Below, piece after piece: positions 20,666-42,555 of a stretch of DNA of 64,000 nt. Positions within the stretch are counted from its first letter, which is position 1, and each line of letters opens with the position of its first letter. The DNA is taken from the NCBI RefSeq assembly GCF_057098645.1, contig NZ_CM169472.1, one strand, 5' to 3'. The position numbers were made by a program, and so were the translations under genes. The notes below the pieces were generated by a model. That model was not told the origin of the DNA. It saw nothing but the letters and a program-made list of their open reading frames with translations, and did not search any database.

Positions 20666-22024
20666 TTAATTCACCTCAGAAATCTCTTCCAACGACACCT
20701 TCCGCGTTTCGATGCCAAAAATGGAGAGAACCAGCGCACAGAGCAATAACATGACACCAAGTACCATAAACACCGTGATCGCCCCATAATGTGTTAATAA
20801 TGCCGCAACGCCATAGGGCGTGAAGACTGCGACGATCCGTCCGACGGCATTAACGAAACCCGAACCGCGCAGGCGTAAATGCGTTGGCCAAAGCTCCGGG
20901 ATATAAACCGCCGACGCGAAGCAAACATACATGTATAAAAAGAAGATCATCACCAGGCCATAGATTAAAATCGCCCACTCTGTAGTCTGAATTGAATAGA
21001 TATAGCCTAACACGGCAATAATAATAAGTAAGGTGGAGCCAAATAACCGACGAGGAAAATGATCAATAATTAATGCCGCAATAAATATTCCTACCGGAGC
21101 GCCAATCATAATAACAGCGGTCATTAATATTGATTTATCGACATCAATGCCGGAGTTAACAAATATGGTCGGTATCCATACGGTGATGGTATAAAGTGAA
21201 ATGTTCATTGCAATTAAAACAGTAATCGCGACTAATGTACGTCGTAACATTTCACCTTTAAACAGGAGCCAGAAAGTACCCTTGATTACGTTAACCTTGC
21301 TGTTGCTCTGATACGAAGTAAGCGGGGGTAAACGAATACTCTTCTCTCTTTCAATTTGCTGCTCTACTTCACGAAGTTGGCTTTCTGCACCGGCGATTTG
21401 CCCTTTCCCTGCCAGCCATCGTGGCGACTCGATAAAGTATTTACCTGAGAGAAACCAGGCTAACAGTATGCCAATACCACCCAACAGAAACATTATCCGC
21501 CAACTAAAAAAAGCGATAACCACCACACCTATCGCCGCAGACAGCATGGGCGACCAGTTACCAACAAATGAGAGCCGCGCGGACCATTTTCCACGCACCG
21601 TCGCGGGGATAAACTCCGTAAATGAGGCATAGCCAACCATAATCAGCGCCCCCATTCCTGTTCCCATCAGGAAGCGAAAGAAGATGAGCCAGTACATATC
21701 AGGGACAAAAGCGGCCCCTGTTGCAGCAATACCGACGATGAGAAGATTTATGCGAAACGCCCTGCGCCGCCCAAAGTAATCACCGATGAACCCACCGGTA
21801 AGAGAGCCGATGAAATAACCAAACATTAATGCCGAGGTAAAGGCGGCATTGAGGAAATTATTTGACCATCCATTGCTTACCAGCTTTGCTAAGACGACAT
21901 TACCGGAGTAACTCAAAAACCCTGTTAATAACAGACTAAAGCTTATAATACCAAATATACGATAATGAAACCGGGCCAAAGGCAAGCGGTCCAGTCTTGC
22001 GCCAATTTGATCATATTGTTCCAT
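20666..22024 (-). CDS. ydjE: MFS transporter (sugar/metabolite porter family)
   Basis: 452 aa from internal ATG (MEQYDQIGARLDRLP...), 12-TM profile. Confidence 0.85.
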   Translation of the reverse strand: MEQYDQIGARLDRLPLARFHYRIFGIISFSLLLTGFLSYSGNVVLAKLVSNGWSNNFLNAAFTSALMFGYFIGSLTGGFIGDYFGRRRAFRINLLIVGIAATGAAFVPDMYWLIFFRFLMGTGMGALIMVGYASFTEFIPATVRGKWSARLSFVGNWSPMLSAAIGVVVIAFFSWRIMFLLGGIGILLAWFLSGKYFIESPRWLAGKGQIAGAESQLREVEQQIEREKSIRLPPLTSYQSNSKVNVIKGTFWLLFKGEMLRRTLVAITVLIAMNISLYTITVWIPTIFVNSGIDVDKSILMTAVIMIGAPVGIFIAALIIDHFPRRLFGSTLLIIIAVLGYIYSIQTTEWAILIYGLVMIFFLYMYVCFASAVYIPELWPTHLRLRGSGFVNAVGRIVAVFTPYGVAALLTHYGAITVFMVLGVMLLLCALVLSIFGIETRKVSLEEISEVN

Positions 22025-22141
22025 TGGGTGCCTCGGATTTGCTAAAAAAGGTAGCAATTGCGGCAAATTCACTTGCCGCATCTTTATTATCATTTTATTT
22101 CCAGGCACAGGAACAAATAATATTGACAACGTGTGCTTAAA

Positions 22142-22900
22142 TTACCACACCAGCTGGATATTATTGTCTTTGCAAAATGCTATCCACTCTGCACCCGGTG
22201 ATTTATCAGTTATTATGTAATTAATATGACTAAAGTCAGCTAACTGGACAAAAGCTTTGCGATCAAACTTAGAGTGATCAACCAATAACGCAACTTCTGT
22301 CGCCTGACGGATCATTGTCTTTTTGATTTCAGCTTCCGCTTCATTAGAGTCCAGCGCGCCGCTGTTAATATCAAGACCTTTACAACTCATTACCATGATA
22401 TCGACATGATAGCGGCTGATGATCTCTTTAGTAATTCTTCCTTGCAGTGAAAGTGTATTTTTGTTTAGTTCCCCACCCGTTGAAACGACTTTAATTTCTG
22501 ACTGAGCCAGAACATGAATCGCTTCCGCCGAGTTGGTTAGCAACGTCAGGTCACTACGGTCCTGTAACAATTTGAGCAATTCCATTACGGTACTACTGGA
22601 ATCGGCTGCCATGGTGGTTTTATTGTCGATAAAGGGTAGTGCCTTGCGTGCAATAAGCTGCTTCTCTTCATAAAACGATGAAGCGCGCTTATAAAAATGG
22701 ATATTCTCCGTCAACATCGCTGTATTTAAAACAGCACCACCATAGGTTCTGGTCAAAAAGCCCTCATCTTCCAGCTTCTCAAGATCGCGGCGAATGGTTT
22801 CTTCGGTTACCTGAAAAATCCCACTCAAATTTGAGACTGTCACCTTTTTATCGTTGGCAACCATTTGCTTAATTGCCTGAATCCTGTCTTTTGCCGCCAC
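22142..22900 (-). CDS. ydjF: DeoR-family transcriptional regulator
   Basis: 252-aa ORF with N-terminal HTH and C-terminal sugar-phosphate-binding domain. Confidence 0.85.
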   Translation of the reverse strand: MAAKDRIQAIKQMVANDKKVTVSNLSGIFQVTEETIRRDLEKLEDEGFLTRTYGGAVLNTAMLTENIHFYKRASSFYEEKQLIARKALPFIDNKTTMAADSSSTVMELLKLLQDRSDLTLLTNSAEAIHVLAQSEIKVVSTGGELNKNTLSLQGRITKEIISRYHVDIMVMSCKGLDINSGALDSNEAEAEIKKTMIRQATEVALLVDHSKFDRKAFVQLADFSHINYIITDKSPGAEWIAFCKDNNIQLVW

Positions 22901-23036
22901 GATTACACCCCTGTATCTTTTTACATCACATTAGCACGATTATCGCATAACCGATGTTTACTTTCAAAATAACCTGTTTGAATCACAGATTTTCATCACA
23001 GTTTTCACAGAAACAGAGGTGAATCGTGTTGAGTAT

Positions 23037-24017
23037 TTAACGCTCCAGGGCCTCTGCCATTTCCCTCATCAATGTTGCGTCTGCATCCGATAAGTTGATA
23101 TTCAGTGCCGCGACATTTTCGCGTACCTGTTCCGGTGCAGTAGCCCCACTAAGAATGGAGATTAAATCACTCTGTTTTAATATCCACGCCAGTGCCAGAG
23201 TGGGAATTGTGCACTGATAACGAGCACAAAGTGGCTGCCACTGTTCAAGCATATCAATCACTTTCAGCATGTTTTCACGCTGGAACCAGACTTTATTTGC
23301 CCGAGCGCCGCCCGGAACGTAATCACGAGTGATGGTGCCGGTCAACAATCCCTGCTCTAGCGGGGAATAAACCTGAACCACAATGCCATTATCACGACAT
23401 AGCGGCAGCAGTTCGTTTTCCATTGCCCGGTCGAGGATACTGTATTTCGCCTGAATAATATCCAGTTCACCATATTGCAGATACTCGCGGATATGGTCAG
23501 CATCGACGTTAGCAGCGCCTATAGCGCGAATTTTCCCTTCAGCCTTTAACTCATTAAGCACTGCGACAGTTTCAGCGATCGGCGTATAAAATGGCGGCAC
23601 CGACTGCCAGTGCGTCATGTAGATATCGATGTAATCAATACCCAGACGTTGCAAGCTGGCTTCTACCTCTTCGCGGATAGATTCCGGGGAAAGGTTTTTA
23701 TACAACTGCCGATCGCCAACTTTGTTGAATAAACTTCCTTTTCGTTCCCAGACAATGCCGCATTTGGTTTCTACTACAACCTGTTCACGGGGCAGTTTTT
23801 TTAACGCCTGACCGACGATAACTTCACTATTGCCAAAGTTATATCCTGGTGCAGTATCAATCAGATTAATGCCGCAACGATGGGCTTCAAGAATCGTATC
23901 AATACATATTTGCCGATCGAGATCGCCATTCCATGCAGGACCGCCGCCAATGGCCCATGTCCCCAACCCCATTCGCGAAAGCGTAATATCCGTTGTGCCT
24001 AAAGGTATCTTTTTCAT
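23037..24017 (-). CDS. ydjG: Aldo-keto reductase
   Basis: 326-aa ORF, AKR family; part of the ydj cluster. Confidence 0.85.
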   Translation of the reverse strand: MKKIPLGTTDITLSRMGLGTWAIGGGPAWNGDLDRQICIDTILEAHRCGINLIDTAPGYNFGNSEVIVGQALKKLPREQVVVETKCGIVWERKGSLFNKVGDRQLYKNLSPESIREEVEASLQRLGIDYIDIYMTHWQSVPPFYTPIAETVAVLNELKAEGKIRAIGAANVDADHIREYLQYGELDIIQAKYSILDRAMENELLPLCRDNGIVVQVYSPLEQGLLTGTITRDYVPGGARANKVWFQRENMLKVIDMLEQWQPLCARYQCTIPTLALAWILKQSDLISILSGATAPEQVRENVAALNINLSDADATLMREMAEALER

Positions 24018-24026
24018 TTGCCTTCA

Positions 24027-24974
24027 TTATCCTTCGTATTCTTCCAGCAATTGTTCGACCAGCTTTCTGTTTTTTACGCCGGTGGTGGCACCGACGCTTA
24101 GAACCGAGATAGCCGCCGTTGCATTGGCAAAGCGTGCGCATTCACGCAGATTTTTGCCTTCTAACAGTGCCGCAATAAAACCTGAAGCAAAGTTATCGCC
24201 CGCGCCAATGGTGTCGATGGCGGTTATTCCTGCGACCGCCGGCACCTTCATCGTCATCTCACCACGCTTGATAAAGCAGCCGTCTTTACCCGTTTTAATC
24301 ACCACCGTTTTTACGCCGCACGCAAGAAAGCAGTCAGCAATTTCATCCAGTGTCTCTTTCCCGGTGAGTAATTTTGCCTCGGCATAATTAGGAAACAGAT
24401 AATCGACATAACTCAATGCTTCGCAAATATCATCCAGCGTTTCATTCAACCGCGGTTTGATCATATCGGCACAGATAATCATCTGCCGGGCTTTAGCTTG
24501 CGTAAAAATTTCTGTTAGCGCTTTACCATCCAATAGTGGACTGTTGAAAATACTGGCCAGTGATAATAATTTTGCCTGGGAAAACCGAGCAAAATCAACA
24601 TCGTCAATATTCAATTTCCACAGACTGCCGTTACGGTTTGTGACAAACGTCCGCTCGCCATCCTCCGTCACCAGTCCAACATTAATAGAGGTATCTATGT
24701 TGACGTCCTGCTTCAGGCTTTGAATATCAATATTCTCTTTGCGGCAATGGTCGAGAATAAACTGCCCTGCGGCATCTTTACCAATACGGCTCATTAATGC
24801 TGTACGATGGCCCAGACGAGAAATAATTGTTGCTTCATTTATTGCATCACCCCCGGTGGTCATTGCGATTCTTTCAAGAGGATAAGAATCCACATCAAAG
24901 ATATTTTTACTGACCGGTTGCAATGGAATATCAACAATAGCGGCACCTATACAAATAACGTCGAGATTATCCAT
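24027..24974 (-). CDS. ydjH: PfkB-family sugar kinase
   Basis: 315 aa from internal ATG (MDNLDVICIGAAIVD...); C-terminal GAGDNF motif; start overlaps the ydjI stop. Confidence 0.8.
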   Translation of the reverse strand: MDNLDVICIGAAIVDIPLQPVSKNIFDVDSYPLERIAMTTGGDAINEATIISRLGHRTALMSRIGKDAAGQFILDHCRKENIDIQSLKQDVNIDTSINVGLVTEDGERTFVTNRNGSLWKLNIDDVDFARFSQAKLLSLASIFNSPLLDGKALTEIFTQAKARQMIICADMIKPRLNETLDDICEALSYVDYLFPNYAEAKLLTGKETLDEIADCFLACGVKTVVIKTGKDGCFIKRGEMTMKVPAVAGITAIDTIGAGDNFASGFIAALLEGKNLRECARFANATAAISVLSVGATTGVKNRKLVEQLLEEYEG

Positions 24975-24978
24975 ATCA

Positions 24979-25815
24979 TTATTCCGCTTTGCCATCAGAA
25001 CCGAACAGTTTAATTTTTTCCAATGCCCGTTCTTTTACAGCTTTACGTACTTCACGTTCTAAATGCAGGAAAGGCTGATCCTGGTTTTCTTTCACTGCGA
25101 CCATTGCGGCCTGACAGAGCTCCGTATGGATGTTGATTTTCGCGATACCCAACGAAATTGCAGTTTTAATGTCGGCATCACTGATCCCCGATGCGCCATG
25201 CAAAACCAGCGGAACAGACACGGCATCGCGTACGCGTTTGACGACCTCAAAGTTCAATTGTGGCTCTGACGTATAAACCCCATGCTGGTTGCCGATGGCG
25301 ACAGCCAATGAGTCACAGCCCGTACGTTCAACAAATTCAGCCGCCTGGTCAGGATCGGTATAGTGATAGCCCGCCAGCGCTTCCTCATAAACGGTTTCAT
25401 TACCGACATGCCCTAATTCCGCCTCTACCGGAATACCCAGCGGATGGAAGAAATCGACAGCCTCTTTGGTTAAGCGAATATTTTCTTCGAAATCAAATGC
25501 GGAAGCATCACGCATTAATGAATTCATACCATGAGTCCAGGCGTTATGAATAATCTCCATACTCCGACCATGATCCCAATGAGTTATTACCGGCACAGTT
25601 GCTTTTCGTGCCATTGATACCATCATGTGAGAGAAATCTTCAAATGAGGTGTTGCCGACAAAACCTGTACCAAAAGAAATAATAACCGGTGATTTCGCTT
25701 CTTCGGCTGCGTCGATAACGCCCATCAACATTTCTGCATTCCATACATTAAAATGGGCAATAGCATAACGTTTATTTGTGGCATCGTTTTCCCAATATCT
25801 GATATCTGCGAGCAT
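24979..25815 (-). CDS. ydjI: Class II (metal-dependent) aldolase, fructose/tagatose-bisphosphate aldolase family
   Basis: 278-aa ORF, class II aldolase family. Confidence 0.85.
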   Translation of the reverse strand: MLADIRYWENDATNKRYAIAHFNVWNAEMLMGVIDAAEEAKSPVIISFGTGFVGNTSFEDFSHMMVSMARKATVPVITHWDHGRSMEIIHNAWTHGMNSLMRDASAFDFEENIRLTKEAVDFFHPLGIPVEAELGHVGNETVYEEALAGYHYTDPDQAAEFVERTGCDSLAVAIGNQHGVYTSEPQLNFEVVKRVRDAVSVPLVLHGASGISDADIKTAISLGIAKINIHTELCQAAMVAVKENQDQPFLHLEREVRKAVKERALEKIKLFGSDGKAE

Positions 25816-25835
25816 GTTCTATTCTCCCGTATTAA

Positions 25836-26879
25836 TTAATCGCTAATCTTAATAACGCCTTTAATAATGTCGCGTTTATTGTTAACTGACTCTTCAAATG
25901 CCTGTTGTACATCCCGATAATCGTAAATATGCGTCACCATCGATTTCACATCGAATCGCCCTGAAGAAATAGCTTCAATCGTGACCGGATAACGATTGGC
26001 GTAGCGGAATACCGTCTGGATAGTAACTTCGCGATTTATTTTGAGGAAATTGATTGCCGAATCGCCGGGTACAGTACCAACAATCATAATTTTACCGCCG
26101 CGCATTACCAGATAAGGTGCCTGTTTAACGGTGACCGCAGAACCCGCTGTTTCGAAAACAATATCTGCGCCCATGTCTTCGGTAAATTGCTGACAGCGTG
26201 CAATAGTGTCTTCTTTTGCGCCGTTAATAACCACTGTCGCACCAAGCTGTTCCGCCATTGCCAGACGTTTTTCCAGCACATCAACGACGGCAATTTCCGT
26301 TGCTCCCAGGCATTTGCACGCTTGCAACGTCATCAAACCAATACAACCCGCTCCCAGAATAATTATCTTCTTACCCGGTTTAACATCTGCCAGCATCGCG
26401 GCATGCATCCCGACTGCGGCAGGCTCCACCAGCGCCCCTTCCATCGTGTCCATATTGTCGGGCAGTTTGTAAGTAAAGCTCTCCGGATGACACAGATAGT
26501 GCGTTAATGCGCCGCGGTAGTTGGGTTGTGTCGCCATAAAATCAACGTCTGGGCAGATGTTATATTTGCCTTCCAGACAGTAACGACAGTGACCGCAAGG
26601 AACGCCAGGTTCGATATTTACCCGATCCCCCGGTTTAAATTTGCGCACGCGGCTTCCCACAGCCACAACCGTCCCGGCGCATTCATGACCCAGGCCAATT
26701 TCTTGATTTGGGTCTTTAGGCGGAATAAACGGACCTGATTCAAAACCATGTACATCTGAACCACAAATACCGACATATTCTACTTTAATCAAAACTTCAT
26801 CTTCTTTAGGCACTGGTATTTCTGCTGAAATAATTTTCATTGTGCCCGGCACCTGCAATATTGCTTTTGAATTTTTCAT
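25836..26879 (-). CDS. ydjJ: Zinc-dependent alcohol/polyol dehydrogenase (MDR family)
   Basis: 347-aa ORF; catalytic zinc motif GHECAG and structural Cys cluster. Confidence 0.85.
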   Translation of the reverse strand: MKNSKAILQVPGTMKIISAEIPVPKEDEVLIKVEYVGICGSDVHGFESGPFIPPKDPNQEIGLGHECAGTVVAVGSRVRKFKPGDRVNIEPGVPCGHCRYCLEGKYNICPDVDFMATQPNYRGALTHYLCHPESFTYKLPDNMDTMEGALVEPAAVGMHAAMLADVKPGKKIIILGAGCIGLMTLQACKCLGATEIAVVDVLEKRLAMAEQLGATVVINGAKEDTIARCQQFTEDMGADIVFETAGSAVTVKQAPYLVMRGGKIMIVGTVPGDSAINFLKINREVTIQTVFRYANRYPVTIEAISSGRFDVKSMVTHIYDYRDVQQAFEESVNNKRDIIKGVIKISD

Positions 26880-26895
26880 TTTGAATCCACCCGTA

Positions 26896-28275
26896 TTATT
26901 TATTGGCTACTGCATCAATACTTAAACTTTCAACGGAGACACCTTTGGTTTCGATTCCAATGGTGGCGATAGCAATTGCTACAATAATTGAAACCGCCCC
27001 CAGAAGAATAAAGACTCCCGTAACGCCATAACTACTGAGCAGCACTGCAACGGCATAAGGTGCGGCAATACCACTGATTCGCCCTACCGCATTCGCCAGA
27101 CCGGAGCCACGGAGTTTGGCCTCTGTCGGCCAGATCTCAGGGACATACACTGCCGAGGCATAGCAAACGTACATATAGACAAAAGTAATCAGGAAGAAAC
27201 CAATCAACGTTATGAGCAACATACTGGTTTGCAGTGAATAGATATATCCGAGCACCGCAATCAGGATTAATAGCCCCACCCCCATTGTTTTACGCGGAAT
27301 TTTATCCATCACCAGCATGGCAATAAAAATGCCAAATGGCGCGCCAAACATACTCATGGTATTTAAAACAATCGAGTCTTTTAAATTAATCCCCTGGGTC
27401 ATGAATATCGTTGGCAACCAGTTAATTAGTGTGTACTGCACAACGTTCATGGCAATCAGCACACAAGAGCCTAATATCACGCGTTTCAGTAATACTCCTG
27501 TCAGTAAGGCTGAATACGGCACCGCTTGTGGTGCTTTACCGTCATCAGCAATAACCACGGGCGGCAAAGGTTTACCTGTCTGGCGTATGACGCCTTCTTC
27601 TATACTCCGCATGACTTTCTCGGCTTCCTGATACCGTCCGCGCGATTCCAGCCAGCGCGGGGATTCAGGAAAGTAGCGCCAGGCCAGCGCCGTAGCGATA
27701 AGCGACAATATTGCAGGGATAAGCAGTTGTACCCGCCAGTTCCACTCTGCACTAATCAGCGGCGTGAGTCCCATCGCTATCAATGAACAGAGCGGATATG
27801 ACCAGTTGCCAATAAAGGAAACCCGACTTGACCACGTTCCACGATTTCTACCGGGCATATATTCGGTGAAACCAGCAAACAGCGTAACCAGTAAAGCTCC
27901 CAGCCCAACTCCCATCACAAAACGGCAGGCAATAAGGAAATCCATATTCGGTGAGAAAGCACCGACAACCATCGAGGCAATATGAATGGCCTCATAGAGG
28001 ATGAACGCATTTCTGCGACCGGTTTTGTCGCCAATGATGCCGCCCACCAGCGCACCGAGAAACATTCCGGCGGTCGTGATTGCTGAGAATGTGGCTGTGG
28101 TGGAATTATCTGTCCAGCCCAACGCTTTCAGCTGCGCGAGGATCAAGCCACCAACGGCATTACTCCAGCAGACAAGCAAGCCAAACGCGACGATGGCAAA
28201 CATTGATGAATGCCAGCGGCAATCCGGTAAGCGATCCAGCCGTGCACCACAATGCGGTTTTGTTATCTGTTCCAT
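26896..28275 (-). CDS. ydjK: MFS transporter
   Basis: 459-aa hydrophobic ORF, sugar-porter-like. Confidence 0.85.
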   Translation of the reverse strand: MEQITKPHCGARLDRLPDCRWHSSMFAIVAFGLLVCWSNAVGGLILAQLKALGWTDNSTTATFSAITTAGMFLGALVGGIIGDKTGRRNAFILYEAIHIASMVVGAFSPNMDFLIACRFVMGVGLGALLVTLFAGFTEYMPGRNRGTWSSRVSFIGNWSYPLCSLIAMGLTPLISAEWNWRVQLLIPAILSLIATALAWRYFPESPRWLESRGRYQEAEKVMRSIEEGVIRQTGKPLPPVVIADDGKAPQAVPYSALLTGVLLKRVILGSCVLIAMNVVQYTLINWLPTIFMTQGINLKDSIVLNTMSMFGAPFGIFIAMLVMDKIPRKTMGVGLLILIAVLGYIYSLQTSMLLITLIGFFLITFVYMYVCYASAVYVPEIWPTEAKLRGSGLANAVGRISGIAAPYAVAVLLSSYGVTGVFILLGAVSIIVAIAIATIGIETKGVSVESLSIDAVANK

Positions 28276-28301
28276 GCGATAACGTTCCTTCAGGAGAGTG
28301 G

Positions 28302-29378
28302 TTATTCATCAAAGTCGTAAGTCATGATCACTTTGATTGCGGTTTTATCGACCATCGCATCAAACCCTTCGCGCCATTGCGACAGGCCGATACGATGCGT
28401 GATCATCGGTTTGACTTTGATAGCGCCGCTGGCTAATAGCCTGATAGCGTTACGCCATGAGGTGGAGTCATAGGCCATATGCCCAATGATGCTTTTGTTC
28501 CAGGCGGTAATGTCATTAATCGAGAAATCAAGAGGTTTGAAGCCCATTCCAACGCGTACCACTTCCCCGTTCGGGCGGAGCATTTCGATGGCTTGTTTCA
28601 GTGCGATATTGGCACCGGAGCATTCAATCACCAGTCCCAGATTGTCTTTGCCACAAATTTGCTGGCAGCGCGCCACCACATCTTCGGTAGAACCATTTAC
28701 TACTGCCGTCGCACCCAGTTCTTTTGCAACCGGGAAGCGGACCGCCACATCTTCTTGCAGACCAACGACGACGATATTTACCGCCCCCATAATTCGCGCC
28801 ATTTGTACGGAGAACAGCCCGAGTGGGCCAGTGCCGATGACGACCACATCCTGACCAGGGAGGAATTTCGATTGCTGCGCGATGGATTTGTAGGCATTAC
28901 AGATAGGGTCAAGTACGGCTGCGTCCTCATAATCAACACCATCAGGGATTTCCCACAACGCATGACGGTGAATTTTGAGAATTTCACCAGGAACCAGACA
29001 ATATTTGGAAAAACCACCGCCCCAGGTATTGTTATCCAGACCAAGGTTTACTTTTTCTGTACAACACAGAAAATCACCTTGTTCACAGGCCGGACAAACG
29101 CCGCAGACGTGACCGCTGTTATCCGACACGACGCGTTGCCCCACTTTCCAGTCTTTGACTTTTTCACCAACCTGCGCAATACAACCTGCAAACTCATGGC
29201 CGCGGATAGAGTTAAACTCATCAGAACCGCTATCGACATTGTAGTGCTTCATGTCTGCGCCGCAGATTGCCGCGGCTTTAATTTCAATCACTACATCTTC
29301 CGGGCCACAAATGGGTTGTGGCACATCGATCATCTTGTAGCCGCCAAAGGCTTTGCCAAACCGAGCCAGTGCTTTCAT
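28302..29378 (-). CDS. ydjL: Zinc-dependent alcohol/polyol dehydrogenase (MDR family)
   Basis: 358-aa ORF; GHEFAG zinc motif, Rossmann GTGPLG. Confidence 0.85.
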   Translation of the reverse strand: MKALARFGKAFGGYKMIDVPQPICGPEDVVIEIKAAAICGADMKHYNVDSGSDEFNSIRGHEFAGCIAQVGEKVKDWKVGQRVVSDNSGHVCGVCPACEQGDFLCCTEKVNLGLDNNTWGGGFSKYCLVPGEILKIHRHALWEIPDGVDYEDAAVLDPICNAYKSIAQQSKFLPGQDVVVIGTGPLGLFSVQMARIMGAVNIVVVGLQEDVAVRFPVAKELGATAVVNGSTEDVVARCQQICGKDNLGLVIECSGANIALKQAIEMLRPNGEVVRVGMGFKPLDFSINDITAWNKSIIGHMAYDSTSWRNAIRLLASGAIKVKPMITHRIGLSQWREGFDAMVDKTAIKVIMTYDFDE

Positions 29379-29747
29379 TGCGTCATCCTCTGTGTTTTGT
29401 TTTGCTTAGATGGTCATCATACTTACCCACATGATTTTTGAGGTCAACATTAAATCTGTAAAACACAGATAATGATCTGCGTTTTACAACTCAGATCACA
29501 ATTACGCAGAAAATGGCTGGGTCTGTTACAGGTTGATGGAAGGCGGGGCGCAAAAAGAGCAAATTCGAGAGGGATTACCGGCCAAATAGGTCTGAGACTT
29601 AAGTTCAGGAGAAGTCATTCAGGTGTGAACGCGACGGCAAGAGATCGGACTGGGACTTAGCCAGGTCATGGCGAGATAATTGAGATGAGTCGTGGGGTCA
29701 TTGTTGGCTATCCCCTTCATAGCCGCGGCAAAAAGGGGATGAACCAC

Positions 29748-30020
29748 TTACTCAAACATGGCAATAGGCTTTGCTGAGATACCAAAATCTTCTTTTAACT
29801 GCTGTTTGCTCTTCATGACCATCTGACCATTTGTGTCAATTGTCATATGCTGTGCTTCGGTATTATGGCGGGCTTGCCATAGCATCACCAGTTGCAGGCA
29901 GTTCTCTTTTTGTTCCTCGGTCAACGCAACGCCATCAGGCCATTTCCCCAGTTCAACGGCGGTCGACAAACGCTGGTATACCTCAGGCGTCATGCTGTTG
30001 ATAATGTCATCAAGATTCAT
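29748..30020 (-). CDS. yeaC: DUF1315 family small protein
   Basis: 90 aa from internal ATG (MNLDDIINSMTPEVYQRL...); directly downstream of msrB on the same strand. Confidence 0.75.
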   Translation of the reverse strand: MNLDDIINSMTPEVYQRLSTAVELGKWPDGVALTEEQKENCLQLVMLWQARHNTEAQHMTIDTNGQMVMKSKQQLKEDFGISAKPIAMFE

Positions 30021-30061
30021 AATTTTTCCGCTCCTGTGGAATAAGTTGCTGAATCGTTTTT

Positions 30062-30475
30062 TCAACCGTTGATTTCTTTGCCGTTTTCGCCATCGGTAAA
30101 GCGTAAAGAGGCAGAGTTAACACAATAACGTTCGCCCGTTGGCTGCGGCCCGTCGGGGAAGACATGCCCCAGATGTGCATCACAGTTACCGCAACGAATT
30201 TCTATGCGCTGCATTCCATGTGACAAGTCTTTGATATAACGAATGGATTCTTCACTTACCGGTTCGTAGAAACTGGGCCAGCCACAGCCGGAATCATACT
30301 TGGTTTGGGAATGAAACAGCGGGGCATCGCAGATCAAACAGTGATATACGCCGTCACGCTTGTTATGCAGTAAACGACCCGTAAATGGCGGCTCTGTCCC
30401 ATGATTCTGCGTCACGTAAAACTGCATCTCGGACAAATTTTTTTTCAGTTCTTCTGCCGAAGGTTTATTAGCCAT
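30062..30475 (-). CDS. msrB: Peptide methionine sulfoxide reductase B
   Basis: 137 aa from internal ATG ([12 protein letters not shown]...); CxxC...CxxC zinc site and SelR domain. Confidence 0.9.
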
Positions 30476-30804
30476 TTGCTCACATCTCACTTTAATCGTG
30501 CTCACATTACGTGACTGATTCTAACAAAACATTAACACCAACTGGCAAAATTTTGTCCTAAACTTGATCTCGACGAAATGGCTGCACCTAAATCGTGATG
30601 AAAATCACATTTTTATCGTAATTGCCCTTTAAAATTCGGGGCGCCGACCCCATGTGGTCTCAAGCCCAAAGGAAGAGTGAGGCGAGTCAGTCGCGTAATG
30701 CTTAGGCACAGGATTGATTTGTCGCAATGATTGACACGATTCCGCTTGACGCTGCGTAAGGTTTTTGTAATTTTACAGGCAACCTTTTATTCACTAACAA
30801 ATAG

Positions 30805-31812
<1,008 letters not shown>

Positions 31813-32830: not shown

Positions 32831-33144
32831 TCACACCATATCCAGCGCAGTTTTTCCTTTTGGTGCCGGATACGCTTTGTCCAGCATGGCTAATTCCGCT
32901 GACGAAAGTTCGACCTCAAGCACAGCCGCATTCTGTTGGACATGGGCAATCGTGGCCGCTTTTGGAATCGCCATCACACCCTGATGGCTGATTACCCACG
33001 CCAACAATACTTGTGCCGCGCTGATATTGTGAGCATGTGCAATTTCGTTGACTACCGCGTTTTTTAACAGTCCATTGCGCAACCGCCCGGCCTGGGCTAA
33101 CGGACTGTAAGCCATCACCGGCATCTGCTGTTGCTGGCACCAGG
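32831..33144 (-). pseudogene. yeaE: yeaE (aldo-keto reductase) 3' fragment, separated from the 5' part by an IS21-family insertion
   Basis: Minus-strand reading frame ...WCQQQQMPVMAYSPLAQAG... ending at stop 32831-32833; native frame reaches the insertion junction at 33144. Confidence 0.8.
33138..33144. repeat. Target-site duplication CACCAGG (left copy)
   Basis: Identical 7-mer directly flanks both ends of the IS (33138-33144 and 35784-35790). Confidence 0.8.
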
Positions 33145-33346
33145 TGCAAAATGGCATCTGAATCGATCGCAGTTTGGCATTCGAATCGATCATGATTTGG
33201 CATCCATCTCCGATCACAGTTTGGCATCACAATCGATCACGATTTGGCATGCTTCCGATCATTGATTGGCATCCTGCCAGTCACTCCGGGAATTAACTCT
33301 TTTCACCACAGTCTCCATTGCCGTGTTTAAACCAGTGGAGACGTCA

Positions 33347-34912
33347 ATGTCCAGAAAGAGAAAATCCAGGAGCACTATGGAAACCTGTTTTAAGATCCTT
33401 CAGCTCAAGTTCGACAAGAAGCTGACTAACCGTTGTATCGGACTGACGTTACACATCAGCGCCTCAACCGTTTTTGAGGTTCTTGCCCGCTTCAAAGCCT
33501 CTTCTCTGTCATGGCCATTACCTGCTGATATATCCCATGACACGCTGGAGAAACTCATTTTTCCGCCCAAAGACACCTTTGCATCAGAGCTTGTAATGCC
33601 TGACATGTTGTACTTCGATACGGAAATGAGAAAACCAGGTGTGACGCGGCAACTGTTGTGGATGGAATACAAGGCACAGGCGGGTAACAAAGCGATGGGA
33701 TACTCGCACTTCTGCCGTTGCTACCGGGAGTGGAAAAAAACGCGACGTCTCTCCATGCGCCAGGAGCATCGTGCCGGCGAAAAGCTTTTTATCGACTTCT
33801 GTGGTCCTACGGTTCCTGTTATTAATCCGGACACCGGTGAGATACGCCGCGTGGCAATCTTCGTGGCCGTAATGGGGGCGTCCAACTATACCTACGTTGA
33901 AGCGTGCGAAGGTCAGGACATGATGTCATGGTTAAATGCCCACAGCCGTTGCCTGACCTTCCTGGGCGGCGTACCGAAGCTGCTCATCCCCGATAACCTC
34001 AGAAGCGCAGTGAAAAAGGCCGATCGATATGAGCCTGTCATCAACGACAGTTATCAGGCACTGGCTGAGCACTATGGCACGGTTATCATCCCGGCCCGAC
34101 CACGCAAACCTAAAGATAAACCAAAAGCAGAAAACGGCGTCCTCATCGTTGAACGATGGCTTCTTGCCCGCATCCGTAATGAAACCTTCCACACGCTCAG
34201 GGCGCTGAATGCGCGCCTTAGGGAGTTACTGACAGACATGAATAACCGGCCAATGAAGGGGTACGGCAATCAAACCCGTGCAGAACGCTTCCGCATACTG
34301 GATGCGCCAGCACTCTCTCCGCTGCCTCTGGCACCTTATGAATACACGGAATACAAAGCTGTGAAGGTTGGCCCTGACTACCACGTTGAATATGCCCGTC
34401 ACTGGTACTCCGTTCCACACGAACTGGTCGGTCAGCGTCTGTCACTGAAGGCGGGGCAGTCGGTGGTACAGCTCTGGCACAAGGGGCAGTGTGTGGCGCA
34501 ACATCCGCGCAGCACACATGAATATAAACACACAACCAATCCGCTTCACATGCCAGAGCGCCACCGGCAGCACGGGACATGGACACCGGAACGCCTGATC
34601 GAGCAGGGAAAACGTACGGGCCCGTCCACAGGCCGGGTGGTTGAATCCATGCTGAAGGCAAAACCCCATCCGGAACTGGCTTATCGTGCAGTTCTGGGGC
34701 TGCTGGCACTTCAGAAAAAATACGGCCCGGAACGGCTGGAAAAGGCCTGTTACGTTGCCCTGCACTATAACGCCCCTGACAGACGCTTTATCGACAATCT
34801 GCTGCGTCACCATCGGGAGAACCTGGAGCTTCCATTATCCCGCCAGGGCGAACAACATCCGGCATATGCTTCAGAGCATGAAAACCTGCGTGGTCCGGGC
34901 TACTACCACTGA
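33347..34912 (+). CDS. istA: IS21-family transposase IstA
   Basis: 521 aa from ATG 33347 preceded by GGAGA; N-terminal HTH region and DDE integrase core; organisation typical of IS21 family. Confidence 0.8.
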   Translation: MSRKRKSRSTMETCFKILQLKFDKKLTNRCIGLTLHISASTVFEVLARFKASSLSWPLPADISHDTLEKLIFPPKDTFASELVMPDMLYFDTEMRKPGVTRQLLWMEYKAQAGNKAMGYSHFCRCYREWKKTRRLSMRQEHRAGEKLFIDFCGPTVPVINPDTGEIRRVAIFVAVMGASNYTYVEACEGQDMMSWLNAHSRCLTFLGGVPKLLIPDNLRSAVKKADRYEPVINDSYQALAEHYGTVIIPARPRKPKDKPKAENGVLIVERWLLARIRNETFHTLRALNARLRELLTDMNNRPMKGYGNQTRAERFRILDAPALSPLPLAPYEYTEYKAVKVGPDYHVEYARHWYSVPHELVGQRLSLKAGQSVVQLWHKGQCVAQHPRSTHEYKHTTNPLHMPERHRQHGTWTPERLIEQGKRTGPSTGRVVESMLKAKPHPELAYRAVLGLLALQKKYGPERLEKACYVALHYNAPDRRFIDNLLRHHRENLELPLSRQGEQHPAYASEHENLRGPGYYH

Positions 34913-34928
34913 CAGAAGGAACAACAGT

Positions 34929-35684
34929 ATGAGTGATAACCTGTTAAACAAACTGACCCAACTGAAACTCCCGGCGATGGCCGGGAGCCTGATACGGCAG
35001 CGGGAAACGCCTCAGACCTACGACGAACTGTCGTTCGAGGAAAGGCTGACGCTGCTGGTTGATGACGAGCTTCTGAGCAGGGAAAACAGCCGTGTGGCAC
35101 GGTTGAGAAAAAATGCCGGCCTGAAATACCAGGCAACACCGGAAGGGCTGCGCTATCCGGCCTCAAGAGGTCTGCGGGCTGAACAGATGAGAGAACTGCT
35201 GAACGGCCACTACATAACCCACAGGAAAAACCTGCTGATAACCGGTCCGACAGGATGTGGCAAGAGCTGGATAGCCAATGCGCTGGGCGAACAGGCATGT
35301 CGACAGAAACACAGCGTCCGGTACTGTAGAACCGGGCGATTACTGGAACAACTGGCTCAGGGACGTGTTGATGGCAGCTGGCTGAAATATCTGAAACAGT
35401 TGCAAAAAATACAGGTTCTAATCCTGGACGATCTGGGGCTGGAACAGTTAAGTAACGCCCAGTGTAATGACCTTCTGGAGCTCATAGAGGATCGTTACGG
35501 ACAAAGCAGCACGATAGTGGTAAGCCAGTTCCCGGTAGATAAATGGCATGGTCTGATGGAGAACCCAACAACAGCAGATGCCATCCTGGACAGACTGGTA
35601 CATAACTCACACCGAGTGGTCCTTCAGGGAGAGTCACTGAGGAAAAATCCCCCGGTAGTGGAAAGCAGCGAAAAAACGCGTTAA
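34929..35684 (+). CDS. istB: IS21-family helper ATPase IstB
   Basis: 251 aa; Walker A GPTGCGKS and Walker B ILDDLG; 16 nt after istA with GAAGGA RBS. Confidence 0.85.
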   Translation: MSDNLLNKLTQLKLPAMAGSLIRQRETPQTYDELSFEERLTLLVDDELLSRENSRVARLRKNAGLKYQATPEGLRYPASRGLRAEQMRELLNGHYITHRKNLLITGPTGCGKSWIANALGEQACRQKHSVRYCRTGRLLEQLAQGRVDGSWLKYLKQLQKIQVLILDDLGLEQLSNAQCNDLLELIEDRYGQSSTIVVSQFPVDKWHGLMENPTTADAILDRLVHNSHRVVLQGESLRKNPPVVESSEKTR

Positions 35685-35783
35685 AAAGCGGTAGAAAAAG
35701 TTAAGTTCCCGGTTGATCGAATGGATGCGAATCGCTGATCGGACTTCGATGCCAATCCGTGATCGAATAGAGCGGAATACGCA

Positions 35784-35790
35784 CACCAGG
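35784..35790. repeat. Target-site duplication CACCAGG (right copy)
   Basis: Identical to 33138-33144. Confidence 0.8.
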
Positions 35791-36331
35791 GGAGTAGATC
35801 GTACTCAATCCCTCGTGAACCGAGATGGTAAAGCACCTGATTAGTGGCACACTGATTTCCCCCCGGCAGCTGCCAGAGTTCCTGCATATCAGCATAATCA
35901 AGGTTAGAAACGCCCCAGCGGCGGATTTTTCCCTGGGCGATCAATTTTTCCATCGCTGCGACAGTCTCTTCAAAAGCGAAACGGCCAGACCAGTGTAATA
36001 AGTAGAGATCGAGATAATCAGTATTGAGACGGCGTAAACTGGCTTCGCATGCATTTATCGCTTTTTGCCCGCCAGCATTCCACGGATAGACTTTAGAGAC
36101 GAGAAAGACGTTATCGCGCAGACCGGTTAATGCTTCCCCAACCACCTTTTCGGCACCGCCATCGGCATACATTTCGGCGGTATCAATGAGGGTTAAACCG
36201 AGCTCAATGCCCGCGCGTAGTGCAGCAACTTCTGTTTTGCGCTGACTGGCATCTTCGCCCATATACCATGTTCCCTGCCCTATGGCTGGCAGTGAGACAT
36301 CGCCACTAAATTGAATCATTTTTTGTTGCAT
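35784..36331 (-). pseudogene. yeaE: yeaE 5' fragment (N-terminal ~183 codons), fused to IS-derived codons
   Basis: Minus-strand ORF starting MQQKMIQFSGDVSLPAIGQGTWYMG...; authentic sequence runs to ...YDLLPWC at the IS junction, then reads into IS DNA until the stop at 35681. Confidence 0.8.
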
Positions 36332-39637: not shown

Positions 39638-40933
<1,296 letters not shown>

Positions 40934-41079
40934 AACTATCAGCCGGGTCATTATCGCCTGGCTGATTTTTAGCTTACTGTAAATTATCTCATTTATTACA
41001 TACATTAGCTTACAATCGCTTTAAATATGACAGCATAACCTTTACATAATTTAGTTCCAGAAAACAATCATTCGGAAAA

Positions 41080-42555
41080 ATGATTCAGTCAACACGTATT
41101 TCCATGGGGTTATTCTTTAAATATTTTTTATCGTTAACGAAAATTGATCTTGGTCAAAACTATATATCTCTGCCATCAATAAAATCCAGCACTCACATTG
41201 TTCTCCTTTTTATGGTTTCTATGGGTACACAAAAATTAAAAGCTCAAAGCTTTTTTATTTTCAGTTTATTGCTGACGTTAATTTTATTTTGCATTACTAC
41301 CTTATATAACGAAAACACAAATGTAAAACTCATCCCACAGATGAATTACCTGATGGTTGTTGTGGCTTTGTTTTTCCTTAACGCCGTCATTTTTCTTTTC
41401 ATGTTAATGAAATATTTCACTAACAAACAAATTTTACCAACACTCATTTTAAGCCTTGCATTTTTAAGTGGCCTTATCTATTTAGTTGAAACCATTGTAA
41501 TTATCCATAAACCAATTAACGGCAGTACACTGATCCAGACAAAGTCGAATGATGTTTCTATTTTCTATATTTTCCGCCAACTCAGTTTTATTTGTTTAAC
41601 CTCGCTGGCGCTCTTTTGTTATGGCAAAGACAACATCCTGAACAATAATAAGAAAAAAACGGCAATCCTGTTGCTGGCGCTGATCCCTTTTTTATTTTTT
41701 CCCGTTCTGGCACACAATCTGAGCAGTTATAACGCTGACTATTCTTTGTATGTCGTCGATTACTGTCCTGACAACCATACTGCGACCTGGGGAATCAACT
41801 ATACAAAAATATTGGTTTGTCTGTGGGCATTTTTACTGTTCTTTATTATCATGCGTACACGATTAGCCAGCGAACTATGGCCATTAATAGCATTATTATG
41901 TCTGGCATCGCTATGCTGCAACTTACTTCTACTGACTCTGGATGAGTATAATTACACCATCTGGTACATCAGTCGCGGGATTGAAGTCTCCAGTAAACTG
42001 TTTGTTGTGTCTTTTCTGATTTATAACATTTTTCAGGAGCTGCAACTCTCCAGCAAACTGGCAGTTCATGATGTGCTGACCAATATTTATAATCGGCGCT
42101 ACTTTTTCAACAGCGTAGAGTCATTATTGTCGCGACCTGTTGTTAAGGACTTTTGTGTCATGTTGGTTGATATTAATCAGTTCAAACGCATCAATGCCCA
42201 ATGGGGACATCGTGTGGGTGATAAAGTGCTGGTATCAATTGTCGATATTATCCAGCAAAGCATCCGCCCCGATGATATTTTAGCGCGACTGGAGGGTGAG
42301 GTGTTTGGCTTGCTATTTACCGAACTCAATAGTGCCCAGGCAAAAATCATTGCGGAACGTATGCGTAAAAATGTCGAACTCCTGACCGGCTTTAGTAACA
42401 GATATGATGTTCCTGAACAAATGACCATCAGTATTGGCACTGTTTTTTCAACGGGTGACACGCGTAATATCTCGCTTGTCATGACGGAAGCAGATAAAGC
42501 CTTACGCGAAGCGAAAAGCGAGGGGGGCAACAAAGTGATTATTCATCATATTTAA
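41080..42555 (+). CDS. dgcI: Membrane-anchored GGDEF-domain protein with degenerate active site
   Basis: 491-aa ORF; AT-rich N-terminal multi-TM domain; GGDEF position reads EGEVF (codons 42292-42306). Confidence 0.8.
   Translation: MIQSTRISMGLFFKYFLSLTKIDLGQNYISLPSIKSSTHIVLLFMVSMGTQKLKAQSFFIFSLLLTLILFCITTLYNENTNVKLIPQMNYLMVVVALFFLNAVIFLFMLMKYFTNKQILPTLILSLAFLSGLIYLVETIVIIHKPINGSTLIQTKSNDVSIFYIFRQLSFICLTSLALFCYGKDNILNNNKKKTAILLLALIPFLFFPVLAHNLSSYNADYSLYVVDYCPDNHTATWGINYTKILVCLWAFLLFFIIMRTRLASELWPLIALLCLASLCCNLLLLTLDEYNYTIWYISRGIEVSSKLFVVSFLIYNIFQELQLSSKLAVHDVLTNIYNRRYFFNSVESLLSRPVVKDFCVMLVDINQFKRINAQWGHRVGDKVLVSIVDIIQQSIRPDDILARLEGEVFGLLFTELNSAQAKIIAERMRKNVELLTGFSNRYDVPEQMTISIGTVFSTGDTRNISLVMTEADKALREAKSEGGNKVIIHHI

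Follow-up and report, generated by a model that had tools for sequence, protein, structure and literature searches.

The stretch of DNA analysed here (64,000 nt of contig NZ_CM169472.1 from RefSeq assembly GCF_057098645.1; hereafter the window, with positions counted from its first letter) carries the ydj locus of Escherichia coli, a cluster of eight genes on the minus strand at 20666-29378. All eight open reading frames (ORFs) are intact, in the order ydjL-K-J-I-H-G-F-E, and the ends of the region coincide with the stop codon of ydjE (20666) and the start codon of ydjL (29378). Gene coordinates are those of the RefSeq annotation of a matching E. coli record, transferred to the window. Positions 20000-30000 of the window match the chromosomes of E. 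coli O145:H28 (RM9872 and others) at 100% identity, and the window stems from an O145:H28-like strain. Over 10 kb, K-12 MG1655 is 98.9% identical in its DNA and carries the same annotation; the K-12 locus has the same eight genes, order and flanks, and differs only by strain-level substitutions. This is an already catalogued, partly characterised chromosomal locus, flanked by pncA on the left (plus strand, ending at 20573) and by yeaC on the right (minus strand, 29748-30020). What we add to it is modest: a cassette of these genes that recurs across phyla, one deletion allele, by the simplest reading, that 20% of E. coli genomes carry, the accessory nature of ydjE, and an architecture of predicted operators.

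Read from its 5' end, the cluster begins with ydjL (28302-29378), the first gene of the operon, which encodes a Zn-dependent, threonine-dehydrogenase-like dehydrogenase. It is followed by ydjK (26896-28275), a major facilitator superfamily (MFS) transporter that is the cassette's own permease in many lineages; ydjJ (25836-26879), a Zn-dependent polyol/ketose dehydrogenase; ydjI (24979-25815), a class II (Zn) ketose-phosphate aldolase; ydjH (24027-24974), a PfkB-family sugar kinase; and ydjG (23037-24017), an aldo-keto reductase annotated as NADH-dependent methylglyoxal reductase. The last two genes are ydjF (22142-22900), which has a GTG start and encodes a DeoR/GlpR-family regulator of 252 amino acids (aa), and ydjE (20666-22024), which encodes a second MFS transporter of 452 aa and is a paralogue of ydjK; a 487-aa ydjE ORF listed by the ORF program is a TTG-extended form of the annotated gene. 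These names, families and gene order had been put forward from the bare sequence in the original prediction, and annotation and Pfam confirm them.

Family membership was assigned with Pfam, and finer levels of assignment were based on the equivalog and subfamily cut-offs of NCBIfam. YdjI is matched by PF01116 over residues 10-276 (298 bits, cut-off 25.5) and by TIGR00167 (323.7 bits, cut-off 215.6), and corresponds over residues 1-278 to PDB entry 6OFU, "YdjI aldolase" (E=2e-186). It scores below the NCBIfam cut-offs for GatY (240 versus 383), KbaY (185.9 versus 542) and TIGR01858 (225.6 versus 443.55), and is therefore not classed as GatY or KbaY. YdjH matches PF00294 over its full length (247 bits) and is the same protein as PDB 3H49/3IN1 (E=6e-205); it misses the NCBIfam equivalog cut-offs for ribokinase and IolC. 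YdjJ and YdjL each contain ADH_N (GroES-like) and ADH_zinc_N domains according to Pfam, and both miss the equivalog cut-offs for threonine, idonate and galactitol-1-phosphate dehydrogenases. YdjJ is the protein of PDB 5VM2, and its closest characterised relatives are ketose reductase and sorbitol dehydrogenase. YdjF combines an HTH_DeoR domain (PF08220, residues 6-60) with a DeoRC sensor domain (PF00455, residues 77-233) and lies below every NCBIfam equivalog cut-off (GlpR, AgaR, SrlR, FucR), and the two transporters match the MFS_1 and Sugar_tr profiles along their entire length and miss the substrate-level subfamily cut-offs. The only cluster protein to pass an NCBIfam equivalog cut-off is YdjG (NF049922, 628.6 bits, cut-off 550; PF00248, 226 bits). 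Because the others all score below the equivalog level, they are distinct members of their families.

The spacing of the genes divides the cluster into three parts. From ydjL through ydjG the gaps are 4-26 bp, compared with 136 bp before ydjF and 117 bp before ydjE. Genes ydjLKJIHG thus form a tight operon, newly assigned as a Crp-activated unit (PMC8085971), and ydjF has its own promoter. The eight genes had originally been treated as one unit, which holds for ydjLKJIHG, but not for ydjF, with its separate promoter, nor for ydjE, which has no operator (in the enterobacterial loci, no operator-like site was found before this gene). For ydjF, a constitutive RpoD (sigma-70) promoter, TTGAAA-17-GATAAT, has been located in the ydjG-ydjF spacer by genomic systematic evolution of ligands by exponential enrichment (SELEX; PMC3946193), and the same sequence, with a TG extension (22939-22967, minus strand), is the best promoter-like match in the region (10/12). 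The putative ydjL promoter is at 29419-29447 on the minus strand, with a -35 element TTGACC (29447-29442), a 17-nt spacer and a weak -10 element AAGTAT (29424-29419). Among 14 Enterobacterales, its TTGAC is invariant and TAAGTAT is conserved. The ydjL promoter is reported to be silent in vitro and on in the mouse gut (PMC6561318), and YdjF is still described as an uncharacterised DeoR-family factor (PMC4797297).

Two further elements lie around ydjF. In the ydjF-ydjE spacer, a hairpin of the form GCGGCAA...TTGCCGC (22059-22080, minus strand) is followed in E. coli by a second small hairpin and a T-tract, approximately 20 nt before the ydjE start codon. The stem of the first hairpin is kept across the Enterobacteriaceae with variable loops, and Yokenella has a compensatory change (GCGGTAA/TTACCGC). 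Possible roles for it are transcription termination, attenuation or an effect on translation. In the ydjF leader, between the -10 element and the GTG start (approximately 22906-22930), is CCCTGTATCTTTTTACATCA, a degenerate LexA site proposed from chromatin immunoprecipitation on microarrays (score 1.30; PMC3542263).

An operator search upstream of ydjL and ydjF, which had been suggested as a check, was positive at both promoters. Upstream of ydjL there is a 32-bp inverted repeat (repeat I2) whose 14-nt arms are 93% complementary, and the 9-mer AAACRCAGA occurs three times in the window, each time no more than 100 bp upstream of ydjL. In an unbiased count of 8-mers over 57 ydjL upstream regions from outside the Enterobacterales, the top words were AACAAAGA and AACACAGA (p 1e-22 to 1e-31, with related Lachnospiraceae loci treated as independent). 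Alignment of the sites yields a 15-bp palindrome, TCTKTG-AAA-CAMAGA, with the E. coli form TCTGTG-AAA-CACAGA, which is predicted to be the operator of YdjF. Over 80 loci the core motif has a density of 4.5 per kb within 300 bp upstream of ydjL, and of 0.084 per kb elsewhere. The placement of the palindrome is also characteristic. In 55 of 83 ydjL upstream regions, which come from several phyla, it ends 6-8 nt before a TTGACN -35 element, the gap being exactly 7 nt in 39 of 61 matches, and in many loci a further half-site, AAACAAAGA, comes straight after the -35 element, inside the spacer. Exactly two sites in the window combine the palindrome, a 7-nt gap and a TTG-type -35 element, one at the ydjL promoter and one at the ydjF promoter, and most of the other composite matches in the fetched loci precede cluster-linked transporter genes. 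The helix-turn-helix of YdjF is highly identical across phyla, which is weak evidence here because its TEETIRRDL motif is generic to the DeoR family.

At the ydjL promoter, all on the minus strand, the predicted operator O1 (TCTGTGTTTTACAGA in gene orientation, 29455-29469) is 7 nt upstream of the -35 element (29442-29447), and a second predicted operator, O2 (GTTGTAAAACGCAGA, 29476-29490), lies approximately 20-21 bp, or two helical turns, from O1; the pair makes up the 32-bp inverted repeat. A third copy of the core (AAACACAGA, 29389-29397) overlaps the ribosome-binding region of ydjL, and may be an operator half-site or simply conserved 5' untranslated region. A candidate CRP-like site (AATTGTGATCTGAGTTGTAAAA, 29482-29503), in which only the left half, TGTGA, is good, overlaps O2. 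In the 14 enterobacterial upstream regions, conservation begins abruptly at TTTGTGATCT, a nearly invariant block that represents the CRP-like half-site overlapping O2, and runs on to the start codon. A 17-mer in ydjH (24470-24486), 94% identical to the O1/O2 junction, was set aside as a chance match that is not synonymously conserved in other Enterobacterales.

The predicted operator at the ydjF promoter (TCTGTGATTCAAACA, 22975-22989, minus strand) has the same 7-nt distance from its -35 element (22962-22967). With the strict core AAAC[AG][CA]AGA there was no enrichment upstream of ydjF; the full 15-bp palindrome, allowing two mismatches and including the -35 spacing, finds the site and overturns that negative, and the site is a degenerate copy of the predicted operator. 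Site and geometry are present in 14 enterobacterial loci, in which the ydjG-ydjF spacer alignment is nearly invariant. An operator at the regulator's own promoter would imply autoregulation.

One more palindrome (TCTGTGTTGTACAGA, 29056-29070, minus strand) is within the coding sequence of ydjL, 309-323 nt from its start and approximately 399 bp from O1. The 7-codon window over this site has the highest synonymous-codon conservation of 160 ydjL windows compared among 15 Enterobacterales (0.978, versus a mean of 0.686), which points to selection on the DNA itself, as would be expected for a looping operator. It is therefore likely to be an auxiliary operator, although this, like the assignment of the other palindromes to YdjF, is a prediction from sequence.

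These sites suggest a scheme in which YdjF, bound at O1, O2 and the intragenic site, would hold the ydjL operon off. A phosphorylated intermediate of the pathway would probably release it, and CRP would assist activation. We consider repression the probable mode, because half-sites flank the -35 element, the intragenic site is constrained, and most DeoR/GlpR members (GlpR, DeoR, AgaR, SrlR, GatR and UlaR) are repressors. YdjF could instead be a FucR-like activator that sits next to the -35 element and recruits RNA polymerase upon binding of an inducer. The end of the main operator approximately 7 nt upstream of the -35 element in 55 of 83 promoters, the weak -10 element of the E. coli ydjL promoter, and the presence of FucR among the similarly scoring relatives of YdjF all speak for such a role. 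Against an activator speak the many promoters in which the -35 element is sandwiched between the main site and AAACAAAGA, a constrained auxiliary site that suits repression by looping, and the ydjF promoter, which is constitutive with RNA polymerase alone and yet bears the same predicted site, and we regard this mode as unlikely.

The enzymology of YdjH and YdjI stems from 2019 work (Huddleston, Raushel and co-workers, Biochemistry 58:3340 and 58:3354) that is cited here through PMC9602453 and PMC11194214. As described there, the two enzymes favour long-chain monosaccharides with a terminal carboxylate, the best in-vitro substrate of YdjI is L-glycero-L-galacto-octuluronate (PMC9602453), and the reaction of YdjI is the interconversion of dihydroxyacetone phosphate (DHAP) plus L-arabinuronate and octuluronate-1-phosphate (PMC11194214). 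The original proposal, in which an unusual carbohydrate is taken up, phosphorylated and cleaved, fits both the annotation and this part of the published enzymology. It was also fair to say that the substrate could not be inferred from sequence, and biochemistry too gives just an in-vitro best substrate.

In the pathway as we would draw it, a permease (YdjK, and perhaps YdjE) takes in an acidic C7-C9 sugar or sugar alcohol. The sorbitol-dehydrogenase-like YdjJ and YdjL, together with the aldo-keto reductase YdjG, would set the oxidation state to give a 2-ketose, which YdjH would phosphorylate to a ketose-1-phosphate. YdjI would then cleave this to DHAP and an aldehyde-acid such as L-arabinuronate, to be processed by the remaining oxidoreductases. 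We infer the order of the redox steps, the site of phosphorylation by YdjH and the roles of the transporters, as well as the operators and the repressor mode described above.

Known systems offer likenesses of two kinds. The L-fucose system of E. coli (FucP permease, FucK kinase, FucA aldolase, FucO oxidoreductase and the DeoR-type regulator FucR) resembles the ydj scheme in its logic: a permease, formation of a 2-ketose, a ketose-1-phosphate, cleavage to DHAP and an aldehyde handled by an oxidoreductase, and a regulator of the DeoR family responsive to a phosphorylated intermediate. It differs in that FucA is not a member of PF01116, the ketose is made by an isomerase, FucR is an activator, and the substrate is a 6-deoxyhexose. 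The galactitol and N-acetylgalactosamine pathways are closer in their protein families. YdjI belongs to the same aldolase family and matches AgaY (1GVF) and KbaY at E~1e-49, YdjJ and YdjL weakly match the model of galactitol-1-phosphate 5-dehydrogenase (a GatD-type Zn-dehydrogenase), and the regulators GatR and AgaR belong to the same DeoR family as YdjF (E=9e-45 against the AgaR model). The ydj proteins nevertheless miss the equivalog cut-offs for GatY, KbaY, GatD and AgaR, and ydj uptake is by MFS permeases, unlike the phosphotransferase system of those pathways. The substrates also differ, YdjI acting on C7-C9 ketose-1-phosphates, according to the two sources above, and GatY and KbaY on tagatose-1,6-bisphosphate.

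The cluster might also be viewed mainly as a stress or detoxification module, directed at reactive aldehydes, acid or osmotic stress rather than at a nutrient. YdjG passes the NADH-dependent methylglyoxal reductase equivalog and reduces methylglyoxal, overexpression of ydjK helps growth in high salt (PMC6561318), and ydj genes are over-represented in lactic-acid-resistant isolates from meat plants (PMC9602453). However, the link to acid resistance is confounded by phylogroup, since ydjI is present in 29.9% of B1 isolates and in 96.6-100% of those of groups A, B2, D and E (PMC9602453). The combination of kinase, DHAP-forming aldolase, permease and DeoR regulator of the sugar-phosphate type is the signature of carbohydrate catabolism. 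Moreover, this catabolic gene set stays together across phyla under strong purifying selection, and outside the enterobacteria the cassette gains a gene of the ribulose-phosphate-3-epimerase family and more solute transporters. We therefore consider a primary role in stress highly unlikely, and retain the catabolic pathway for an acidic sugar.

The cassette is by no means confined to enterobacteria. Relatives of YdjI with 73-87% identity are found in Firmicutes (Lachnospiraceae, Clostridium, Oscillospiraceae, Erysipelotrichaceae, Anaerococcus, Veillonella and Megamonas), in Actinobacteria (Atopobiaceae and Parafannyhessea), in Synergistaceae, in Sebaldella (Fusobacteriota), and in Gilliamella, a bee-gut gammaproteobacterium. 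The order ydjL-K-J-I-H-G-F recurs in 80 fetched loci. YdjL and YdjI are the most conserved cassette proteins across phyla (70-87% identity); outside the Enterobacterales, identities to the E. coli proteins are 69-87% for YdjL and 40-66% for YdjF. YdjK has 50-78% identity in many non-enterobacterial clusters, and elsewhere there is an SDF-family (sodium:dicarboxylate symporter) or ABC transporter instead. The conserved core thus consists of L, J, I, H, G and usually F, and the transporter is the variable element. A neighbour-joining tree of YdjL plus YdjI contradicts taxonomy in several ways: its two actinobacterial sequences fall in separate clades, Synergistaceae group with Blautia, Sebaldella groups with the Enterobacterales, and Gilliamella falls outside them. 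On a deep time scale, the ydjLKJIHGF cassette is clearly mobile and has been exchanged between phyla of gut anaerobes.

The non-enterobacterial cassettes (loci L005-L088; Lachnospiraceae, Clostridium, Veillonella/Megamonas, Atopobiaceae, Synergistaceae and Sebaldella) have the same gene order and orientation as in E. coli, and share the operator palindrome and its 7-nt gap to the -35 element. They differ from E. coli primarily in their accessory genes. In 30 loci a ribulose-phosphate-3-epimerase-family gene lies between ydjL and ydjK, in 29 an SDF-family gene comes after ydjF (approximately 20 of these 29 with their own operator-bearing promoter), and in approximately 10 a Liv-type ABC transporter replaces ydjK. 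The SDF genes with their own copy of the operator-promoter module include those of Lachnospiraceae. Linkage to a symporter of the carboxylate type would fit the in-vitro preference for acidic substrates. ydjE is restricted to the enterobacterial form of the cluster and is missing from the clusters of Firmicutes, Actinobacteria and Fusobacteria. Its product shares 44% identity with the protein that other taxa encode at the YdjK position; Veillonella and Clostridium puniceum have more distant MFS genes of the YdjE type upstream of the cassette. Accordingly, ydjE is best described as an enterobacterial accessory add-on.

It is quite possible, and we put it forward tentatively, that the cassette occurs only in anaerobes associated with hosts (Enterobacterales, Gilliamella, Lachnospiraceae, Negativicutes, Coriobacteriia, Synergistaceae and Fusobacteriota), that it travels with its own regulator and a near-invariant operator-promoter module (palindrome TCTKTG-WWW-CAMAGA, 7 nt, -35 element), and that its substrate is a specific acidic sugar, common in the gut, that has so far gone unrecognised as a nutrient. 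In the papers that could be searched, we found neither the cross-phylum spread nor the operator.

Other enterobacteria have a further gene beside ydjL. Citrobacter, Klebsiella, Raoultella and Yokenella have a gene for a 426-aa secreted GH18 chitinase-like protein, on the opposite strand between yeaC and ydjL, which in Salmonella is reduced to a 76-aa fragment. No remnant of it was detected in the 369-bp yeaC-ydjL spacer of E. coli (best E=1.1).

The base composition of the cluster had been described as heterogeneous and AT-rich in parts, including the 3' half of ydjE, and taken as a hint of acquired origin. The deviation is real but moderate. The guanine-plus-cytosine (G+C) content of the cluster is 46.5%, versus 50.4% for the remainder of the window, and ranges from 0.42 (ydjF) to 0.50 (ydjL) among its genes; the 3' half of ydjE has 43.1% and the 5' half 47.9%. 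At third codon positions the G+C content (GC3) of the eight cluster genes averages 0.468, whereas 49 other long ORFs average 0.545 (Mann-Whitney p=1.3e-4). Equally low values are also found at approximately 36.3-45.6 kb, which holds an 8.7-kb stretch of such composition. In every enterobacterial genus compared, the flanks exceed the cluster by 2-5 G+C points, and across all hosts the G+C content of the cluster follows that of the host (r=0.92, slope 0.76, range 32-64%). The low G+C content is therefore a family-wide offset and not a strain-specific signature. As the cluster tracks its hosts in this way, the transfers must be old enough for composition to have adjusted, and for the deficit in E. 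coli, incomplete adjustment or constraint at the protein level is a better explanation than recent import.

Other parts of the window depart further in composition. Its most AT-rich 500 bp (G+C approximately 0.30) are near 40.95 kb (40750-41400), outside the cluster, and are far more extreme than any part of it; they lie at the start of a 491-aa ORF (41080-42555, G+C 0.38) that is, by its position, probably yeaI. Two adjoining minus-strand ORFs at 11087-12125 (195 and 154 aa) have G+C contents of 0.43 and 0.40 and GC3 values of 0.45 and 0.39, described as lower than any ydj gene.

The position of the cluster is also shared across the family. The same site between yeaC and pncA is occupied in seven genera (Escherichia, Salmonella, Citrobacter, Klebsiella, Raoultella, Yokenella and Intestinirhabdus), including the cryptic Escherichia clades and the Klebsiella oxytoca group, and in these genera the cluster proteins are 82-96% identical to those of E. 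coli, compared with 80-99% for the products of flanking genes. There is no tRNA gene between window positions 10000 and 40000, no integrase or other mobility gene inside the cluster (by Pfam), and no repeat flanking the boundaries at 20631 and 29750. A search for plasmid carriage gave three matches to ydjI, all of which were chromosome-sized or misassigned records. From the shared site, the flank-like divergence and the lack of tRNA gene, mobility gene, repeats or plasmid copies, we conclude that the cluster is a long-term resident of the Enterobacteriaceae at a single site.

A stronger version of the hint would make the cluster a recently acquired genomic island of E. coli. In its favour are the G+C and GC3 values below those of neighbouring genes, a clean-edged presence/absence polymorphism in E. 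coli (described below), and near homologues in unrelated phyla. But of the usual marks of an island, neither a tRNA or integrase gene with direct repeats nor absence from the syntenic site in related genera was found, and the atypical base composition, which was found, is an offset common to the whole family: the 2-5 point deficit recurs in all seven genera, and the cluster tracks host G+C. Cluster and flanks have diverged alike, the supposed plasmid matches are mislabelled, and the empty sites sampled all have one junction, which indicates one event and not repeated gain. Recent import is largely refuted already, and we regard it as extremely improbable. The suggestion of an acquired origin therefore stands for the deep past, given the cross-phylum spread, but not for recent time, given the shared site and the flank-like divergence.

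Carriage within E. coli was scored as at least 80% coverage of a 10-kb query among 5,426 complete genomes, of which 4,262 (78.5%) carry the cluster. The 2019 enzymology reportedly gives a figure of 80%. In a spread sample of non-carriers, pncA and yeaC are adjacent, and alignment of two ydj-less strains places the breakpoints at window positions 20631 and 29750. The block that is present or absent (20632-29749; 9,118 bp) comprises the eight genes and the ydjL upstream region, and the empty-site allele has approximately 93 unrelated bp in its place, for which no homologue was found in the window or any fetched locus, except for a shared repetitive extragenic palindrome (REP) hairpin. The empty-site junction occurs once each in 1,087 of the 5,426 genomes (20.0%), and 975 of these 1,087 junctions are at least 99% identical, so that there is one empty allele. 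This polymorphism of the block agrees with the phylogroup bias of ydjI given above (PMC9602453). The simplest account of the E. coli empty site is one secondary loss of the whole block.

Several features surround these breakpoints. The REP-like hairpin, GGCCTACA...TGTAGGCC (20583-20613), lies between the convergent pncA and ydjE and is kept in cluster-less strains; an Rfam scan of 19500-31000 gave just a sub-threshold match to a microRNA model on this hairpin (24 bits, cut-off 72) and thus no known RNA family. A 16-nt repeat (D11, spacing 9,121 bp) was rejected as the cause of the deletion, as it sits inside ydjE and yeaC, off the junctions. The flanks of the ydj-less strains diverge unevenly from the window, with 96.8-97.1% identity on the left (ansA-pncA, 18826-20631) and 99.0-99.3% on the right (yeaC-gapA, 29750-31500, where the 3' end of yeaC differs), which suggests that the empty allele has been moved by recombination.

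An additional 1.4% of E. coli genomes, approximately, have a cluster that is partly deleted or disrupted by insertion sequences (IS1, IS3, IS5). In these decayed minority copies, which include that of E. coli 2017.02.04CC, IS1 copies remove ydjI, ydjJ and parts of ydjH, ydjK and ydjE, ydjL has an internal stop, and insertions of IS3 or IS5 also occur. Such copies raise the question of whether the cluster is, in E. coli, a decaying and effectively cryptic remnant without current function, which would agree with its silence in laboratory culture (PMC6561318), with its deletion in 20% of genomes and its disruption in these others, and with the fact that its growth substrate is not known. Yet the eight frames are intact in the window and the cluster is present in 78.5% of complete genomes, the mouse gut specifically switches the ydjL promoter on (PMC6561318), and conservation across genera extends from the regulatory DNA to synonymous positions at the predicted intragenic operator. 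We find a cryptic remnant highly improbable.

As a whole, we hold it to be highly probable that the locus consists of a ydjLKJIHG operon with ydjF and ydjE, that it encodes a pathway for acidic sugars under the control of YdjF, and that it is an old cassette which some E. coli have lost. Several points weigh against this account. According to PMC9602453, the best in-vitro substrate of YdjI is not known to be abundant in nature, and the pathway as drawn may therefore be a mere approximation. The sole demonstrated activity of YdjG is the reduction of methylglyoxal (PMC6561318), and the roles of YdjL, YdjJ, YdjK and YdjE are inferred only. The operators are predicted from sequence, with word statistics that carry the dependence among Lachnospiraceae loci mentioned earlier, and an operator just upstream of the -35 element, together with a weak -10 element, would suit an activator as well. 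Finally, the choice between loss and ancestral polymorphism at the E. coli empty site was decided by parsimony alone.

The ydj system is an orphan pathway with three solved structures and with a kinase and an aldolase characterised in vitro. Separating the conserved core (L, J, I, H, G and F, with a variable transporter) from the add-on ydjE narrows the problem, and a pathway that is common to many gut anaerobes argues for a common, gut-borne substrate; the SDF-transporter link in Firmicutes fits an acidic one. The predicted operator sequences are usable for a reporter, and, if they are correct, the operator/regulator pair could act as a biosensor with which to find the substrate. The clean deletion allele in 20% of genomes offers a natural, isogenic-like contrast for colonisation studies.

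Two other polymorphisms are found near the cluster. A SIMPL/DUF541 gene (18063-18773, within region 17985-18825) between sppA and ansA is a second indel. It has no match between sppA and ansA in Salmonella, Citrobacter or Klebsiella, is absent from both of the ydj-less strains examined (in which the sppA-ansA gap is 166 bp), and is kept in the Escherichia clades. On the other side, yeaE is apparently split by an IS21-family element (window 32831-36331) that encodes a 521-aa IstA-like transposase (33347-34912; rve, Mu-transposase C) and a 272-aa IstB ATPase (34866-35684); in the otherwise identical RM9872, yeaE is intact.

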